Both the position numbers and the translations under genes were made by a program. Source: a virus (lineage: Duplodnaviria; Heunggongvirae; Uroviricota; Caudoviricetes). From it: 8,430 nt of DNA. The DNA is taken from IMG/VR virus record IMGVR_UViG_2684622619_000023. One strand, 5' to 3'. How positions within the stretch are numbered: the first letter of the stretch is position 1; each line of letters begins with the position of its first letter. Below the pieces are notes generated by a model that saw nothing but the letters and a program-made list of their open reading frames with translations, searched no databases and was not told the DNA's origin. Of this stretch, positions 552-8,430 are shown piece after piece.

Positions 552-962
552 TTAGTGATTCAGGCCGTTGCCGCGTCCGTCGAGAAAAACTTCCACGAGC
601 AAATCACGGGTATAAGTGCGCTCGATGCCGCGATGCAGATAAAGCCGTCCGCGTAAATTAGCTGATGCAGTCCAGGTACCATCTTTGTGTTTGACCAGCA
701 TTCCTGGCATGACCGCACCGCGATTAACGGTCTGCGTTCCGTAATGTTGATGAACCATAAAAACTCCTGCCCGTAAGCTGGGCTGCTGAACATATAGAGA
801 CTTCTGCGCGTATTCAGGCGGTGGATGGCCGCCGGTTGTCATAACTAAGCCGCCTCGTTGAAGCGACTGAGGTATGAGGTGTTGAGTTGATTTCAGCTGG
901 TCACACCGACGTTCACGCGTCCGCTTCACCCCTCGCACTTCCCGGAGCCTGCTGAAATTCAA
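552..962 (-). CDS. Hypothetical protein, first ORF downstream of the putative PL (N/kil position); Arg-rich N-terminal segment; start codon uncertain
   Basis: Only substantial ORF between the candidate PL and gam. The track start is a TTG (RC of 960-962); alternative starts are the GTG at the GVK codons, with GGGAAG about 7 nt upstream, or the internal ATG at MTTGG. The stop (cactaa) sits at the position where the lambda kil stop lies relative to gam. N-terminal [20 protein letters not shown] resembles an arginine-rich motif. No recalled homologue; could be partly spurious. Confidence 0.3.
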
Positions 963-1029
963 GCTGCGGATCTAAGCGGTCATCGCAACGGTGAATCAGG
1001 TGGTTGCCGTATCGTTGTGTTGTTGCGAT

Positions 1030-1110
1030 GAATTTATTTAAAACTATAGTTGTTTTGTCGTCAACAACAAAAGTTGTTTTATTGGTTTTTTTAGATGTAA
1101 ATGGTTGTAT
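1030..1110 (-). promoter_or_regulatory. Candidate PL promoter with OL operator-like palindromes, directing leftward transcription into the 552-962 ORF, gam and bet
   Basis: On the minus strand: -35 TTGACG (plus 1059-1064), 17-nt spacer ACAAAACAACTATAGTT, -10 TTAAAT (plus 1036-1041). This closely mirrors the PR candidate (TTGACT, spacer AAAAACAACCATAGTTT, TAATCT). GTTGTT/AACAAC half-sites at 1049-1054, 1063-1068 and 1073-1078, and AAATGGTTGT at 1098-1108, are shared with the OR region. Confidence 0.45.
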
Positions 1111-2735: not shown

Positions 2736-3425
2736 CTATCCATGCTTCCTATACGTCTGCGGCATGCTCCCAATAACTTTCCCGAAGATAAACACCCGGT
2801 TCATCTCGTCTTTCTCGATTGGGTCCCACGGTGAGTAGCTCTTGTTATCAGAGATAACCAGCAGTTTATCCTTCATCATTTGCAGGCGCTTTACATGGGC
2901 TGTGTCGTCGTACAGAAACGCATAGATACCATCACCGTCGAAAGATTTAACCGTGATATCAACGAACAGCAGATCACCAGGTTCAATCGTTCCTGACATG
3001 CTGTCACCGCGTACGTTAATGATGCGGATATTTTCTGCCTTCCTGCCATCGAACATGTGACGAGCATCGTCAAACGAGTACTCAACCGAGCGTAGGACTT
3101 CTACAAACTCACGGTTGATGACACCCGGCCCGGCACTCACTTCTATATCAAGAACGTCAATCTTAAAGTATTTGGAATGGCTGACAGTTGGTTGTATTGG
3201 TTGCACTGTACTGTCTGACATATTTCCAACGCCAGAAGATAACCATTCTGCGCGCACACCCAAAGCGTTCGCGATCTCCACGATTTTAGTTGTTTGATTA
3301 GCTTTCCCTGTTTCGATTTTCTGAATAGCAGCTTGGCTAACCCCGACCAAATCCCCAAGCGCCTTTTGTGTAAGGCCTCGCGCTAATCTGGCTTCTTTAA
3401 GTCTTTCTGAGAGTGTTGTTTTCAT
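2736..3425 (-). CDS. cI: Phage CI-type repressor (XRE-family HTH N-domain + LexA-like S24 peptidase C-domain)
   Basis: 229-aa ORF. N-terminal HTH (LTQKALGDLVGVSQAAIQKIETGK). C-terminal S24 autopeptidase features (GDSMSGTIEPGDLLFVD with catalytic Ser; downstream HVKRL Lys). Divergently oriented from cro across an operator-rich intergenic region. Not lambda-cI-like in sequence, i.e. a different immunity type. Confidence 0.88.
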   Translation of the reverse strand: MKTTLSERLKEARLARGLTQKALGDLVGVSQAAIQKIETGKANQTTKIVEIANALGVRAEWLSSGVGNMSDSTVQPIQPTVSHSKYFKIDVLDIEVSAGPGVINREFVEVLRSVEYSFDDARHMFDGRKAENIRIINVRGDSMSGTIEPGDLLFVDITVKSFDGDGIYAFLYDDTAHVKRLQMMKDKLLVISDNKSYSPWDPIEKDEMNRVFIFGKVIGSMPQTYRKHG

Positions 3426-3529
3426 AGTTCAAATGTACAACCAAGGTTTTATTCCATCAAACGAAAATGGTTGTTGACTAAAAACAACCATAGTTTTAAT
3501 CTTGATTCAAATTAACCACGGAGGTTGTT
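3426..3529. promoter_or_regulatory. Immunity control region: OR operators with divergent PR (rightward to cro) and PRM (leftward to cI) candidates
   Basis: PR: TTGACT 3474-3479, 17-nt spacer, TAATCT 3497-3502, then GGAGG 3520-3524 and cro ATG at 3530. Perfect 9/9 inverted repeat ATGGTTGTT (3467-3475) / AACAACCAT (3483-3491) overlaps the PR -35. Additional half-sites ACAACCA at 3437-3443 and GGTTGTT at 3523-3529. PRM candidate on the minus strand: TTGATG, 17 nt, TACATT, ending about 6 nt before the cI ATG, so cI mRNA may be leaderless as in lambda. Confidence 0.6.
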
Positions 3530-3760
3530 ATGAACCCAGCTATTAAAACAGCGATCAATATCGTTGGTTCACAAAAGAAACTGGGCGCTGCTTGCGAAGT
3601 TTCACAGCAGGCCGTCTATAAGTGGCTTCACAACAAAGCAAAGGTATCCCCTGAACATGTCGGCAGCATTGTTACGGCTACTGGTGGAGTAGTGAAGGCA
3701 CACCAGATTCGCCCGGATCTTCCGAAGTTGTTTCCACACACCGAAAAGAACGCAGCTTAA
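3530..3760 (+). CDS. cro: Cro-like repressor, YdaS-type HTH regulator
   Basis: 76-aa ORF directly downstream of the PR candidate with a GGAGG RBS. HTH-like segment KKLGAACEVSQQAVYKWLHNK. Position and size as for cro; sequence resembles Rac-type YdaS/Cro regulators rather than lambda Cro (from memory). Confidence 0.8.
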   Translation: MNPAIKTAINIVGSQKKLGAACEVSQQAVYKWLHNKAKVSPEHVGSIVTATGGVVKAHQIRPDLPKLFPHTEKNAA

Positions 3761-3772
3761 ATTTCCATTTCA

Positions 3773-3785
3773 CGCTCTTTAACAA
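3773..3785 (+). promoter_or_regulatory. boxA-like element in the nutR position
   Basis: CGCTCTTTAACAA lies 13 nt after the cro stop. It matches the boxA consensus (lambda nut boxA CGCTCTTA; rrn boxA GCTCTTTAACAA). No convincing GC-rich boxB hairpin follows. Confidence 0.4.
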
Positions 3786-3829
3786 TAAGCAATCAACTTA
3801 ACAGTCAATTCAAACTAAAGGAGTCAATT

Positions 3830-4369
3830 ATGCAACCACTTACATACCAACAGACTAGCGGATTTAGCCCGACTGCGGTGATAAATCGTTCTCAAACAAA
3901 ACAGGTGCCAGGCCACGAAAAAATCCGTGATGCCGTCCGCGCCTGGTCGGCTGAAGATAATCAGGATGTCGTTGCCACACTCATTGTGAATGAGTATCGG
4001 GAGCAGGGCGGCGGCACCATCGATTTCCCTGATGATGTCAGCCGTGCACGCCAGAAGCTGTTCCGCTTCCTCGATAACAAATTCGATTCTGAAAAATACC
4101 GAAATAACGTGCGTGAACTGACCCCGGCAATTCTGGCGGTACTACCGCTGGAATATCGCGGTTACCTGGTTGAGCAGGATAGCTTTATGGCTAGGTTGGC
4201 TGAAATGGAAAAGGAACTCAGTGAGGCAAAACAGGCTGTCATTCTCAACGCACCACGCCACCAGAAACTGAAGGAAATTAGTGAAGGTATTGTGTCGATG
4301 TTTCGTGTGGACCCAGATCTGGCTGGTCCACTGATGGCGATGGTCACCACCATGCTGGGGGCAATATGA
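3830..4369 (+). CDS. YdaT-like protein occupying the cII position (function uncertain; regulator or toxin-like)
   Basis: 179-aa ORF with AAGGAG RBS 7 nt upstream. Motifs EYREQGGGTIDFP and LTPAILAVLPLEYR resemble what I recall of the Rac prophage YdaT family, which follows ydaS-type cro genes. Stop overlaps a downstream ATG (ATGA at 4366-4369). Confidence 0.6.
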   Translation: MQPLTYQQTSGFSPTAVINRSQTKQVPGHEKIRDAVRAWSAEDNQDVVATLIVNEYREQGGGTIDFPDDVSRARQKLFRFLDNKFDSEKYRNNVRELTPAILAVLPLEYRGYLVEQDSFMARLAEMEKELSEAKQAVILNAPRHQKLKEISEGIVSMFRVDPDLAGPLMAMVTTMLGAI

Positions 4370-4455: not shown

Positions 4456-5320
4456 ATGGCAAACACTGCTGAGATATTCAATTTTCCAGTGCCGGATGTG
4501 GCACAAAAGGAGCCGCGCGTGGCAGATCTCGATGATGGTTATACGCGCATTGCAAATGAGTTGCTGGAAGCTGTGATGCTGGCCGGATTAACACAGCACC
4601 AGCTTCTGGTCTTCCTGGCTGTCATGCGCAAAACATATGGCTTTAATAAAAAACTGGATTGGGTGAGCAACGAGCAACTTTCCGAATTGACCGGGATATT
4701 GCCGCACAAGTGTTCTGCTGCAAAAAGCGTTCTGGTAAAGCGTGGGATTCTTATTCAGAGCGGGCGGAATACCGGCATTAATAATGTGGTCAGTGAATGG
4801 TCAACATTACCCGAATCAGGTAAGAAAAATAAAGTTTACCTGAAAGAGGTAAATTTACCTGAATCAGGTAAAAAAAGTTTACCCAAATCAGGTAAAGACG
4901 TTTACCCGAATCAGGTAAACACAAAAGACAAAATAACAAAAGACAATATAAAACCTTATTCGTCCGAGAATTCTGGCGAATCCTCTGACCAGCCAGAAAA
5001 CGACCTTCCTGTGGTGAAACCGGATGCTGCGATTCAGAGCGGCAGCAAGTGGGGGACAGCAGAAGACCTGACCGCCGCAGAGTGGATGTTTGANNNNNNN
5101 NNNNNNNNNNNNNNNNNNNNNNNNNNNNNNNNNNNNNNNNNNNTTCCGCTGGGCATGCCAGGACAACTTCTGGTCCGGTAACGTGCTAAGTCCGGCCAAA
5201 CTCCGTGACAAGTGGACCCAACTCGAAATCAACCGTAACAAGCAACAGGCTGGAGTGACAGCCGGAAAATCAAAACTGGACCTGACAAACACTGACTGGA
5301 TTTATGGGGTGGATTTATGA
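4456..5320 (+). CDS. O: Replication initiator protein O (lambda O-like); reading frame interrupted by a 50-nt run of N (5094-5143)
   Basis: ATG at 4456 with GGGAGG 5 nt upstream; N-terminus MANTAEIFNFPVPDVAQKEPRVADLDDGYTRIANELLEA parallels lambda O MTNTAKILNF...VADLDDGYARLSN. After the gap, the frame ending at 5320 gives ...FWSGNVLSPAKLRDKWTQLEINRNKQQAGVTAGKSKLDLTNTDWIYGVDL, matching the lambda O C-terminus. The in-frame ATG at 4366 is an alternative but less likely start. Confidence 0.88.
4807..4956. repeat. Origin of replication (ori-lambda-like) inside the O gene: five 17-bp iterons plus an AT-rich region
   Basis: Iterons TTACC(C/T)(G/A)AA(T/A)(C/G)AGGTAA at 4807-4823, 4836-4852 (degenerate), 4855-4871, 4879-4895 and 4902-4918, each with inverted ends TTACC/GGTAA. 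Followed by the A-rich stretch ACAAAAGACAAAATAACAAAAGACAATATAAAA (4920-4956). Same organisation as lambda ori within the O linker. Confidence 0.8.
5094..5143. other. Run of 50 N (assembly gap or masked bases) inside gene O
   Basis: Directly visible. The O reading frames before and after the run differ by one position, so 50 is not the true missing length. Confidence 0.99.
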
Positions 5321-6018
5321 AAAACATCGCCGCACAAATGGTTAACTTTGACTGTGAGCAGATGCGCCGGATCGCCAACAACATGCCGGAACAGTACGAC
5401 GAAAAGCCACAGGTACAGCAGGTAGCGCAGATCATCAACGGTGTGTTCAGGCAGTTACTGGCAACTTTCCCGGCGAGCCTGGCTAACCGTGACCAGAATG
5501 AACTGAACGAAATCCGCCGCCAGTGGGTTCTGGCTTTCCGGGAAAACGGGATCACCACAATGGAACAGGTTAACGCAGGAATGCGCGTAGCCCGTCGGCA
5601 GAATCGACCATTTCTGCCATCACCCGGGCAGTTTGTTGCATGGTGCCGGGAAGAAGCATCCGTTATCGCCGGACTGCCAAACGTCAGCGAGCTGGTTGAT
5701 ATGGTTTACGAGTATTGCCGGAAGCGTGGCCTGTATCCGGATGCAGAGTCTTATCCGTGGAAATCGAACGCGCATTACTGGTTGGTTACCAACTTGTACC
5801 AGAACATGCGGGCCAATGCGCTGACTGACGCGGAATTACGGCGCAAGGCTGCCGATGAACTGACCTGTATGACAGCGCGAATTAACCGTGGTGAGACGAT
5901 ACCTGAACCAGTAAAACAACTTCCTGTTATGGGCGGTAGACCTCTAAATCGTGCACAGGCTCTGGCGAAGATCGCAGAAATTAAAGCTAAGTTCGGACTG
6001 AAAGGAGCAAGTGTATGA
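5317..6018 (+). CDS. P: Replication protein P (DnaB helicase loader), lambda P-like
   Basis: 233-aa ORF MKNIAAQMVNFDCEQMRRIANNMPEQYDEKPQVQQVAQIING...KFGLKGASV, near-identical to my recollection of lambda P. ATG overlaps the O stop (ATGA at 5317-5320). Confidence 0.95.
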   Translation: MKNIAAQMVNFDCEQMRRIANNMPEQYDEKPQVQQVAQIINGVFRQLLATFPASLANRDQNELNEIRRQWVLAFRENGITTMEQVNAGMRVARRQNRPFLPSPGQFVAWCREEASVIAGLPNVSELVDMVYEYCRKRGLYPDAESYPWKSNAHYWLVTNLYQNMRANALTDAELRRKAADELTCMTARINRGETIPEPVKQLPVMGGRPLNRAQALAKIAEIKAKFGLKGASV

Positions 6019-6317
6019 CGGGCAAAGAGGCAATTATTCATTACCTGGGGACGCATAAGAGCTTCTGTGCACAGGACGTTGCCGCGGTAACAGGCGCAAC
6101 CGTAACCAGCATAAATCAGGCTGCGGCTAAAATGGCGCGGGCAGGAATCCTGGTCGTTGATGGTAAGGTCTGGCGAACGGTGTATTACCGGTTCGCTACC
6201 AGAGAAGAACGGGAAGGAAAGGTGAGCACGAATCTGATTTTTAAGGAGTGTCGCCAGAGTGCCGCGATGAAACGGGTATTGAGGGTATATAAAAGAACAT
6301 CAATGGGTACACAATGA
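6015..6317 (+). CDS. ren: Ren protein (lambda ren-like), divergent C-terminus
   Basis: 100-aa ORF MTGKEAIIHYLGTHKSFCAQDVAAVTGATVTSINQAAAKMARAGILVVDGKVWRTVYYRFATREEREGK... matches recalled lambda Ren. ATG overlaps the P stop (ATGA at 6015-6018). Confidence 0.9.
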   Translation: MTGKEAIIHYLGTHKSFCAQDVAAVTGATVTSINQAAAKMARAGILVVDGKVWRTVYYRFATREEREGKVSTNLIFKECRQSAAMKRVLRVYKRTSMGTQ

Positions 6318-6334
6318 TGAAACAGGTGAGTTGA

Positions 6335-6369
6335 GTTCAAACTGTAGTACAATTCTCTCCAGTTTGAAC
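6335..6369. repeat. Perfect 10-bp inverted repeat GTTCAAACTG (15-nt spacer) CAGTTTGAAC between ren and emrE
   Basis: Arms at 6335-6344 and 6360-6369 are exact reverse complements. Ends 1 nt before the emrE RBS (AGGAAAG, 6370-6376). Confidence 0.6.
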
Positions 6370-6384
6370 AGGAAAGAATATGTT

Positions 6385-6717
6385 ATGAACCCTTATATTT
6401 ATCTTGGTGGTGCAATACTTGCAGAGGTCATTGGTACAACCTTAATGAAGTTTTCAGAAGGTTTTACACGGTTATGGCCATCTGTTGGTACAATTATTTG
6501 TTATTGTGCATCATTCTGGTTATTAGCTCAGACGCTGGCTTATATTCCTACAGGGATTGCTTATGCTATCTGGTCAGGAGTCGGTATTGTCCTGATTAGC
6601 TTACTATCATGGGGGTTTTTCGGCCAACGGCTGGACCTGCCAGCCGTTATAGGCATGATGTTGATTTGTGCCGGTGTGTTGGTTATTAATTTATTGTCAC
6701 GAAGCACACCACATTAA
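6385..6717 (+). CDS. emrE: EmrE, small multidrug resistance (SMR) family efflux transporter, 110 aa
   Basis: From the ATG at 6385 (RBS AGGAAAG 6370-6376): MNPYIYLGGAILAEVIGTTLMKFSEGFTRLWPSVGTIICYCASFWLLAQTLAYIPTGIAYAIWSGVGIVLISLLSWGFFGQRLDLPAVIGMMLICAGVLVINLLSRSTPH, essentially the E. coli EmrE sequence as I recall it; four hydrophobic helices. The 18-codon upstream extension in the track (from 6331) is rejected. Confidence 0.95.
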   Translation: MNPYIYLGGAILAEVIGTTLMKFSEGFTRLWPSVGTIICYCASFWLLAQTLAYIPTGIAYAIWSGVGIVLISLLSWGFFGQRLDLPAVIGMMLICAGVLVINLLSRSTPH

Positions 6718-6747
6718 AAATAATTTCTTTTAAAAGACTGCAATATG

Positions 6748-6780
6748 GCGGTTCATATCTTTACATGGGCCGCTTTTGTT
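6748..6780 (+). terminator. Candidate intrinsic terminator downstream of emrE
   Basis: Stem GCGGTTCAT (6748-6756) / ATGGGCCGC (6765-6773), 9 bp including two G-U pairs, 8-nt loop, followed by TTTTGTT (6774-6780). Confidence 0.45.
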
Positions 6781-6961
6781 AATGTTTTTAGTTTTTGTGT
6801 ATTCTTTTGTGCCTTCAAGATTATTGCGTAAGCAAATTGCAATACGATTATTGTTGTATATTCAAGATAGTGTGATCGTAATTGTCTTTTTAAATAAAAA
6901 TTAAACAAAAATTATATCTCACCACTAAGGTTTATAAAAGCATAAGTTAGCAGGTGTCACC

Positions 6962-8430
6962 ATGAAAAAAGCCATAGCATATATGCGATTTTCATCACCA
7001 GGTCAGATGTCTGGCGACTCATTAAACCGACAGAGAAGACTTATTGCTGAATGGTTAAAGGTAAATAGTGATTATTATCTTGATACCATAACATATGAAG
7101 ATTTAGGATTAAGTGCATTCAAAGGAAAGCATGCACAATCAGGAGCTTTTTCGGAATTTTTAGATGCTATAGAGCATGGTTATATATTGCCAGGAACTAC
7201 ATTGTTAGTTGAAAGTCTGGACAGACTTTCAAGAGAAAAAGTCGGTGAAGCGATTGAACGTCTGAAATTGATTTTGAATCACGGTATTGATGTTATAACT
7301 CTTTGCGACAATACAGTCTATAATATTGACTCTTTGAATGAGCCATATTCATTAATAAAAGCCATACTTATAGCACAAAGGGCAAATGAAGAAAGCGAGA
7401 TAAAGTCAAGTCGGGTTAAATTATCATGGAAGAAAAAACGGCAGGATGCACTGGAATCAGGTACGATTATGACGGCGTCTTGTCCGAGATGGCTCTCCTT
7501 AGATGACAAAAGAACGGCTTTTGTTCCAGACCCCGACAGGGTGAAAACTATTGAGCTAATTTTTAAACTCAGGATGGAAAGGCGCTCATTGAATGCAATA
7601 GCCAAGTATTTAAATGATCATGCTGTAAAGAATTTCTCAGGAAAAGAAAGTGCATGGGGACCTTCTGTAATTGAAAAATTATTAGCGAATAAAGCTCTGA
7701 TAGGTATATGCGTACCTTCATATCGTGCAAGAGGGAAAGGGATAAGTGAAATCGCTGGCTATTATCCCAGAGTCATATCAGATGATTTGTTTTACGCTGT
7801 ACAGGAAATTCGGTTGGCACCTTTTGGTATTAGCAATAGTAGCAAGAATCCTATGCTAATAAATCTACTTCGAACAGTTATGAAGTGTGAGGCTTGTGGT
7901 AATACCATGATTGTTCATGCGGTATCTGGAAGTTTGCATGGCTATTATGTTTGTCCGATGAGAAGATTACATCGATGTGACAGGCCATCAATAAAGAGAG
8001 ATTTGGTTGATTATAATATCATTAATGAATTGCTTTTTAATTGTAGCAAAATTCAACCAGTTGAAAACAAGAAAGATGCTAATGAAACTTTAGAGTTAAA
8101 AATTATTGAGCTTCAGATGAAAATTAATAATTTAATCGTTGCATTGTCTGTCGCGCCTGAAGTTACCGCTATAGCAGAGAAAATAAGACTATTAGATAAG
8201 GAATTACGAAGGGCTTCGGTATCATTGAAAACTTTGAAGAGTAAAGGTGTAAATTCATTCAGTGATTTTTATGCTATTGACTTAACCAGTAAAAATGGAC
8301 GAGAGTTATGCCGTACACTTGCCTATAAAACATTCGAAAAAATCATAATTAATACGGATAATAAAACCTGTGATATCTATTTTATGAATGGCATTGTTTT
8401 TAAACACTATCCTTTAATGAAAGTAATATC
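6962..8430 (+). CDS. ybcK: Large serine recombinase (resolvase/invertase-type N-domain + recombinase domain + Cys-rich zinc-ribbon-like region), DLP12 ybcK-like; 3' end beyond the window
   Basis: ATG at 6962 with AGGTG 5 nt upstream. Frame is open for 489 codons to the window edge (my own translation; not in the track because no stop is reached). N-terminus MKKAIAYMRFSSPGQMSGDSLNRQRRLIAEW has the serine-recombinase catalytic motif; later CEACGNTMIVHAVSGSLHGYYVCPMRRLHRC is zinc-ribbon-like. AT-rich. The ren-emrE-recombinase order matches what I recall of E. coli DLP12. Confidence 0.88.
   Translation, partial: MKKAIAYMRFSSPGQMSGDSLNRQRRLIAEWLKVNSDYYLDTITYEDLGLSAFKGKHAQSGAFSEFLDAIEHGYILPGTTLLVESLDRLSREKVGEAIERLKLILNHGIDVITLCDNTVYNIDSLNEPYSLIKAILIAQRANEESEIKSSRVKLSWKKKRQDALESGTIMTASCPRWLSLDDKRTAFVPDPDRVKTIELIFKLRMERRSLNAIAKYLNDHAVKNFSGKESAWGPSVIEKLLANKALIGICVPSYRARGKGISEIAGYYPRVISDDLFYAVQEIRLAPFGISNSSKNPMLINLLRTVMKCEACGNTMIVHAVSGSLHGYYVCPMRRLHRCDRPSIKRDLVDYNIINELLFNCSKIQPVENKKDANETLELKIIELQMKINNLIVALSVAPEVTAIAEKIRLLDKELRRASVSLKTLKSKGVNSFSDFYAIDLTSKNGRELCRTLAYKTFEKIIINTDNKTCDIYFMNGIVFKHYPLMKVI

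Follow-up and report, generated by a model that had tools for sequence, protein, structure and literature searches.

Does a lambdoid phage with no recognisable N gene carry an N-like antiterminator at the head of its early-left operon? The question is raised by a 136-codon open reading frame (ORF) in an 8,430-nt stretch of viral DNA, IMG/VR record IMGVR_UViG_2684622619_000023, which we analysed whole and call the window. The ORF runs from 962 to 552 on the minus strand, starts with TTG and is rich in arginine at residues 5 to 24, all of which we confirmed in the sequence. The original prediction likened these residues to the arginine-rich motif (ARM) of N-type antiterminators. It also noted that the ORF lies where kil lies relative to gam, and warned that the ORF might be partly spurious.

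Here we conclude that the N-type reading is wrong, while the inference of kil and the doubt about the ORF are right. With a probability of roughly 90%, judged from sequence comparisons, the 136-codon ORF is a composite. Its downstream half is a real 68-amino acid (aa) kil gene, and its upstream half is an accidental open frame through the leader of the early-left transcript.

An N-less early-left operon

The window spans the immunity region and early genes of a lambdoid prophage. Along the minus strand, PL is followed by the leader, then kil, gam and bet. The gam gene (180–476; Pfam PF06064, E 3.4e-65) is the next gene downstream of kil, and bet, also of the early-left operon, runs off the window start. 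The same strand carries an ASCH-domain gene (1616–1239), a gene for a 357-aa protein (2667–1594) and an S24/HTH cI repressor gene (3425–2736). On the plus strand are a YdaS-type cro (3530–3760) and a gene for a YdaT-domain protein (3830–4369), followed downstream by O, P, ren and an SMR transporter. The region 6750–8430 was considered as an ORF-free stretch and rejected as such; it is a ybcK-like recombinase gene running past the window end.

We agree with the original prediction that this early-left operon is without N, cIII, ral and sieB. The sequenced close relatives, phages PhiR47_2, 4A7, Perceval, IdasGreatGrand and Turner, have kil-gam-bet-exo directly downstream of PL and have Q, and none of the five has an annotated N gene. 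Cargo in the slot between cI and PL differs by relative: a GevT/GevA pair occupies it in PhiR47_2 and in the window, and a HipD antitoxin, a SIR2 protein, a lipoprotein or a transmembrane protein in others. A literature search on GevAT and the PhiR phages found nothing relevant.

A candidate PL lies at 1036–1064 on the minus strand (−35 TTGACG at 1064–1059, a 17-nt spacer, −10 TTAAAT at 1041–1036). It overlaps operator-like palindromes, and the operator-like repeat at 1038–1056 shows 95% complementarity to 3481–3499 at PR. Downstream of the promoter, the leader is 96–99% identical among relatives with different OL/PL regions. This identity begins at about 1028, which fits a TTGACG-N17-TTAAAT promoter at 1064–1036. 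From this assignment and its probable start point, the early-left transcript would open with an untranslated leader of about 270 nt (759–1030, minus strand), the 5′ UTR of kil-gam-bet-exo. Codons 1–68 of the long ORF (962–759) fall within it.

The downstream half is a kil gene

The second half of the long ORF, residues 69–136, corresponds to a 68-aa kil of the KilR/phi80 type and predicted FtsZ inhibitor (552–758, minus strand; ATG 758–756, stop TAA 554–552). An AGGAG Shine-Dalgarno sequence can be read at 764–768, 5 nt upstream of the ATG. The stop, in the context cacTAA, does occupy the kil position beside gam, with 75 nt separating it from the gam ATG at 476.

Family searches limit similarity to residues 69–136. 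The hit to PHROG 294 ('Kil protein for bacterial septation inhibition') has E 1.3e-37. The NCBIfam profile PRK11354 ('FtsZ inhibitor protein') aligns over positions 1–70 of its 73 with E 1.8e-17 and a score of 63 bits, which is under the curated 92-bit cutoff of this KilR-specific model. In BLASTP the 68-aa form aligns with Rac KilR at 36% identity (E 9e-13), residue 1 on residue 1, and with phi80 Kil at 41% (E 5e-16), residue 5 on residue 4. The N-terminus has the family pattern M-x-x-x-H-Y/F-G-T at a length within the family range of about 68–73 aa, with alignments beginning at M69 of the long ORF. HK225 Kil, also 68 aa, opens with the same MVNQHYGTQ. The RefSeq/PGAP call is exactly the 68-aa form, WP_000233576.1, 'phage encoded cell division inhibitor protein', and database relatives carry the precomputed Pfam assignment PF27398. 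Longer forms exist, and several phage records annotate 96–139 aa; the N-terminal extensions in database entries are heterogeneous read-throughs of the leader.

An AlphaFold2 (AF2) model of the 68-aa protein, the one confident model of five, is all-beta with six strands and loose termini (pLDDT 82.4; residues 1–4 at low confidence). About nine residues follow the last strand, and the sequence of this tail is unlike that of KilR and like that of phi80 Kil. A Foldseek search of the model against viral structures returned only uncharacterised small beta proteins.

Homology at 36–41% identity suggests that the product would block FtsZ. The kil assignment made from position thus stands for the C-terminal half of the ORF, although the gene is of the Rac KilR/phi80 type, not the lambda type. 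It is an ordinary gene and already known, annotated by RefSeq in thousands of E. coli prophages. Among GTDB species genomes, kil adjoins PL in Citrobacter, Kluyvera, Enterobacter and Silvania behind unrelated, shorter leaders, and no homologue of the ARM-coding domain was found among these genomes.

Coding constraint begins at the kil ATG

We drew homologous sequences of this region from 12 sequenced phages, from E. coli genomes and from contigs in IMG/VR. The population set comprises 129 contigs with 97 distinct 500-nt haplotypes. Within kil (758–555), 67 sites vary, distributed 11/14/42 over codon positions 1, 2 and 3. The changes are 53 synonymous and 25 nonsynonymous, with no stop and no frameshifted haplotype, and the 68-aa ORF is intact in 126 of the 127 contigs that have a KilR-type kil. 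The upstream half (962–759) has 47 variable sites distributed 17/13/17, with 15 synonymous changes, 34 nonsynonymous changes, three stops and 14 frameshifted haplotypes. This flat profile argues against any other frame on either strand as well. Within it, 962–883 varies 9/5/5 by codon position, with no third-position excess, and includes radical substitutions of R by W, E by G, and S by L or G. Third-position bias is also absent from 882–759. These substitution patterns indicate coding selection on kil and none on the upstream 68 codons.

The same data bear on a product of the full 136 codons, which would be either Kil preceded by an N-like, arginine-rich RNA-binding domain or an N-type antiterminator of very small size. 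As such a product would need, the window has the frame open, and so have 58 of the 129 related contigs. However, it is interrupted in the other 71, most often by a CAG to TAG change at codon 32 (51 contigs), and kil is kept intact. The upstream half has no codon periodicity, and no Shine-Dalgarno sequence is found before TTG 962.

An intermediate start has also been proposed by gene callers. The in-frame ATG at 842 would give a 96-aa Kil (MTTGGHPPP...), and this form appears in many database entries, including one cluster of 472 members, and in several phage records. The ATG and the nucleotides after it are conserved in phi80, HK225 and HK639. In those three phages, however, the ATG opens an ORF of 20–21 codons that ends before kil. 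Indels in CobraSix and S9-5 shift the frame, and 1-nt indels between 842 and 758 break it in the isolated phages Turner and PhiR30_1, with kil intact. The only SD-like sequence, GAGG, sits within the stem of hairpin 1 of the leader, described below, 882–759 is without third-position bias, and the characterised homologues align from M69. We consider the 96-aa form very unlikely.

The arginine-rich motif arises from a G-rich leader domain

The motif itself, KRTRERR, is encoded at 906–926 on the minus strand in the frame of the long ORF. It lies within a G-rich domain of the leader (about 901–960, minus strand; C/G 0.3–0.5 across 960–901), and this G-rich centre is the source of the arginine and glycine codons of the upstream half. 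We defined an ARM-like window as seven residues with at least five K/R, including at least four R. Two such windows occur over the six frames, against 2.1 ± 1.6 in composition-preserving shuffles, and 12.5% of shuffled leaders carried an ARM-like motif. The motif is therefore present at chance frequency.

Homology gave a similar answer. Residues 1–68 (759–962) have no Pfam, NCBIfam or PHROG match at E up to 1. BLASTP against lambda N aligned nothing at the ARM; a single 21-residue match (E 0.03) lies elsewhere. Of the two relationships put forward for this ORF, then, that to Kil held and that to the N family did not.

We also looked for the RNA targets of an N-type protein. The leaders at 1036–745 (minus strand) and 3495–3835 (plus strand) contain no boxB-like hairpin, defined as a GNRA or GNRNA loop closed by a stem of 4 bp or longer. 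An exact boxA consensus, CGCTCTTTAACAA, is present at 3773–3785 on the plus strand, just after cro at the nutR position, with no adjacent boxB. It is the sole boxA match with fewer than three mismatches in the window, and the PL leader has none within three mismatches. A boxA at the nutR position with no nutL counterpart had been noted before, and the observation is borne out.

Taken with the coding test, these results leave the N-type reading of the ARM without N-family similarity, coding selection, a Shine-Dalgarno sequence or a boxB. For the 136-aa product, the resemblance of KRTRERR to lambda N TRRRERR, in a phage with no N gene, is set against these points and against a frame that crosses a covarying RNA hairpin. 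We regard this product as largely refuted and as the least probable of the readings weighed here.

A separate ARM peptide of 31–68 aa could instead be made from TTG 962, with phage transcripts as its targets in trans. Almost all relatives keep codons 1–31 open, a 31-codon ORF is annotated here in one record, and the codons for RTRERR are almost invariant. Indeed, only 5 of the 36 ARM-coding nucleotides vary. This near-invariance fits constraint at the RNA level; by itself it is compatible with a short peptide too, and RNA structure explains it equally well. The peptide would start from a non-ATG codon with no ribosome-binding site, its length would be 31, 40, 50 or 136 aa among close relatives, and the 962–883 segment that would encode it tolerates the radical substitutions noted above. 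A boxB-type target is absent. We find such a peptide hardly credible. The composite reading takes the motif as a by-product of a constrained leader, to which we now turn.

The leader is conserved at the nucleotide level

Of 5426 complete E. coli genomes, 2225 contain the 272 nt upstream of kil, and no coding sequence is annotated there. In phage D2 the same leader stands upstream of a non-homologous, lambda-type kil. Variable sites make up 23% of the leader, compared with 62% of kil third positions and 18% of kil first and second positions, which points to constraint on the leader at the nucleotide level. Its degree of conservation is close to that of nonsynonymous sites in kil.

The leader begins with a predicted 5′-terminal hairpin (981–1030, minus strand; RNAalifold), in which 1030–1024 pairs with 981–987 around a C-rich loop. 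Among 69 leader haplotypes its pairs vary only from C-G to U-G and from A-U to G-U, so pairing is kept. The transcript start CAUCG...AAC is common to HK639, phi80, HK225 and prophages of other genera. A second leader hairpin (967–944, minus strand) and the G-rich domain follow. Then comes a G-free tract, AAAUCAACUCAACACCUCAUACCUCA, at 868–893 on the minus strand, 26 nt long with 10 C. It resembles a Rho-utilisation (rut) site and may function as one.

Overlapping this tract is a conserved module at 876–797 (minus strand). It consists of CATACC, hairpin 1, UUAUGA, hairpin 2 and then GCGCAGAAGUCU. Hairpin 1 (848–868, minus strand) has 9 bp, with 868–860 pairing to 856–848, and an AAC loop, and overlaps codons 32–39 of the long ORF. 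Across eight phages of Escherichia, Klebsiella, Enterobacter and Salmonella, six of its nine pairs change on both sides. In that alignment 97% of cells are paired, compared with 37–57% when the partner strand is slid, and none of 500 shuffles equalled this. Hairpin 1 thus covaries across four genera. Hairpin 2 (817–833, minus strand; GGCGG CCAUCCA CCGCC) lies 3′ of the in-frame AUG at 842–840 and is almost invariant across the same eight phages. The equivalent of hairpin 2 is annotated as a terminator in the HK639 record. Here too the peptide frame is not conserved, as the indels of CobraSix and S9-5 fall across it.

Besides the window lineage, the module is found in phi80, HK225, HK639, Klebsiella KO-TP1, Enterobacter ENT1 and CobraSix, and Salmonella S9-5. 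In those phages it comes right after the intrinsic terminator of the first PL gene (N in phi80) and before the kil cluster.

Several candidate features of the leader were tried and rejected. The variants 945T and 924A always co-occur, yet they form no helix and occur in one lineage; this is linkage, not compensation. As for a remnant of an N gene or nutL in the 5′ domain, local alignments with the PL leaders of phi80, HK225, HK639, HK022 and four other genera share only the first ~25 nt. Likeness of the left and right leaders to lambda nutR, rutA and rutB gave weak, gapped alignments and is not used as evidence.

What the leader may do

We asked what a conserved leader could contribute alongside the kil gene. 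A cis-acting regulatory role would add to the composite reading rather than compete with it, and we put it at slightly under even odds. The low variability set out above favours it, as do the retention of the leader beside different PL/OL regions and different kil genes, the covariation of hairpin 1 across genera and the C-rich tract without G at 893–868. Precedents exist in related operons. NusG controls Rac kilR (PMC5793797), and Rho with NusG is described as silencing foreign DNA in the work of Cardinale et al. 2008, as cited there. The kilR leader of Rac contains an annotated sRNA, KilS, and the phi80 record annotates a Rho-dependent terminator, tL1B, between N and kil.

Other results weigh against such a role. 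By minimum free energy, the complete leader folds no more stably than its shuffles (z = −0.7). Within the lineage the 5′ domain shows only one-sided changes and no double compensations. An Rfam E-value scan of the whole window gave only chance matches of the miRNA/snoRNA type and no family match for the leader. The leader is without a boxA. Phage D2, which has the same leader, has no matching element on the right side, the boxA consensus being missing from its post-cro region.

The form of cis-action that we infer as most likely has Rho loading on the C-rich tract and the hairpins controlling access or stability, which would tune expression of the toxic kil. Less likely, the leader RNA would act as a processive antiterminator and so take the place of N and nutL in this N-less lineage. 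The put RNAs of HK022 and HK639 are antiterminator RNAs. We built a covariance model from three of their sequences (HK022 putL, HK022 putR and HK639 putL), which scores its own members at 62–98 bits. None of the leaders of the window, PhiR47_2, D2, phi80 and HK225 gives a match to this model, and its best matches in the window reach at most 5 bits and lie outside the leaders. A put-like antiterminator role is thus unlikely.

A bolder proposal makes the leader a hitherto undescribed cis-acting RNA in control of early-left transcription across a widespread lambdoid lineage that has no N. We hold this to be doubtful. Were it true, the leader would be either a Rho-dependent attenuator guarding toxic kil or a protein-free substitute for N plus nutL. 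The covarying module is shared with P22-like phages as well as with phi80, HK225 and HK639.

Discussion

The composite reading suggests a simple course of events. Inactivation of the S24-type cI would let PL fire, and Kil would be made, kil being the gene that opens the PL operon (kil-gam-bet-exo) in this N-less, DLP12-like lambdoid prophage. By homology, Kil would block assembly of the FtsZ ring and so stop cell division in early lytic development. At high dose it might also hit MreB, as reported for KilR (PMC12482147). The upstream 68 codons, KRTRERR included, would be part of no conserved translated protein but an accidental frame in a structured leader.

This removes a false lead, as the locus holds no hidden N-like antiterminator, and the caution that the ORF may be partly spurious was well placed: the upstream half is noncoding and the C-terminal half is a real gene. 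It also carries a warning for annotation. Many phage and metagenome records over-extend kil to between 96 and 139 aa, and the extension mimics an RNA-binding ARM. In this lineage the early operons appear to work with neither N nor boxB nor put RNA. The points of interest are thus the leader RNA and the handling of early termination in an N-less lineage.

Comparison with known systems

Rac KilR (73 aa) is homologous to the window Kil over almost its whole length, is of similar size and shares the predicted all-beta core. The two genes are also placed alike: each belongs to a lambdoid prophage's early-left operon, follows a long leader and precedes recombination genes. KilR inhibits FtsZ and, at high level, MreB as well; its AlphaFold3 model is described as an all-beta core with short unstructured termini, and its unstructured C-terminal tail of 12 aa is required for toxicity (PMC12482147). 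The two proteins differ in this tail. That of the window Kil, DGRGNGLNH, is shorter and unrelated in sequence to the KilR tail, GRDGLPVKAESW. The leaders are also unrelated, and nothing like KilS is seen in the window.

The tail instead resembles that of phi80 Kil (69 aa), with LDGxGNxLxH at both C-termini. Both phi80 and HK225 (Kil of 68 aa) have the same upstream hairpin module as the window. In both phages an N-like gene and an intrinsic terminator precede the module. The window has neither, and its PL is connected straight to the module by a lineage-specific 5′ domain of 150 nt.

Lambda Kil (47 aa), a reported FtsZ inhibitor, occupies the same slot upstream of gam with the same cacTAA stop context. 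BLASTP of the window Kil against lambda Kil gives no alignment at E up to 100, and lambda Kil is an analogue of the window Kil, not a homologue. Phage D2 joins the two situations: downstream of the same leader, the identical slot is filled by a lambda-type kil. The junctions lie at the start and stop codons, and the D2 sequence rejoins that of the window exactly at TCACTAA.

The likeness to N antiterminators (lambda N, P22 gp24, phi21 N) comes down to a T-R-E-R-R string in a non-conserved frame and the boxA at the nutR position. The window differs from these systems in its absent family similarity, coding constraint, boxB and left boxA. The put RNAs of HK022 and HK639 occur in a setting similar to that of the leader described here, in lambdoid phages that lack N and have a structured RNA shortly after PL, and in HK639 the first ~25 nt of the PL transcript resemble those of the window.

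A conserved hairpin module lies ahead of the kil cluster

The PL leader carries a conserved non-coding module on the minus strand (window 876-797), which reads, in transcript order, CATACC, hairpin 1, UUAUGA, hairpin 2 and GCGCAGAAGUCU. In lambdoid and P22-like phages spanning four genera, the module, from CATACC to GCGCAGAAGUCU, precedes the kil cluster, usually directly after the tL1 terminator. Further copies occur in the comparison phage loci L013 (2503-2580), L015 (2503-2590), L014 (2485-2560) and L030-L033 (near 600-690). Hairpin 1 shows compensatory changes at six of its nine pairs. No Rfam family matches the hairpin module.

Short blocks shared by the leader and the post-cro region

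Two short blocks, collinear in transcript orientation, occur both in the PL leader and immediately downstream of cro. The first, CGCAGCTTRAATTTC, is identical at 14 of 15 positions (window 954-968 versus 3751-3765), and the second, AATCAACTYAACA, at 12 of 13 (880-892 versus 3791-3803). The right-hand copies sit on either side of a boxA consensus. By our own estimate the probability that both left/right blocks arose together by chance is about 1e-4, making this origin unlikely. The right-hand blocks are missing, however, from phage D2, whose left leader is the same. The boxA itself, CGCTCTTTAACAA, is an exact rrn/P22-type element on the plus strand between cro and a YdaT-like gene (3773-3785), in a phage with neither an N gene nor boxB. 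This boxA may recruit host NusB/NusE unaided, or it may be no more than a relic.

Gene exchange in the kil and rexAB positions

In D2 (L003), a lambda-type kil (3072-3215) occupies the slot held in the window by the KilR-type kil (552-758), with the same leader upstream. The two genes have no similarity, and identity between D2 and the window resumes exactly at the common TCACTAA stop context. The exchange is a clean non-orthologous replacement.

Between cI and PL, in the rexAB position, the window has two overlapping minus-strand genes (1239-2667). The larger encodes 357 aa with no Pfam match and the smaller 125 aa with an ASCH domain; in the close relative PhiR47_2 the pair is annotated as GevT toxin and GevA antitoxin. 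In relatives this slot holds a HipD antitoxin, a SIR2 protein, or a lipoprotein or transmembrane protein.

Comparison with known prophages

The replication gene O contains a run of about 54 N (about 5093-5146), translated as 18 X, which reflects either masking or a gap in the assembly. Further right (6015-8430, plus strand) lie ren, an EmrE-like SMR transporter (6385-6717) and a ybcK-like recombinase gene, which is incomplete and continues past the window end. PhiR47_2 and the cryptic prophage DLP12 have the same order. By this shared gene order the window belongs to a DLP12-like phage, of which relatives keep complete forms.

In the Rac locus of E. coli K-12 (L029), RefSeq annotates the small RNA KilS at 5406-5503, within the long leader upstream of kilR. 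No sequence relation is visible between KilS and the window PL leader, but KilS sets a precedent for features at the RNA level ahead of kil genes.
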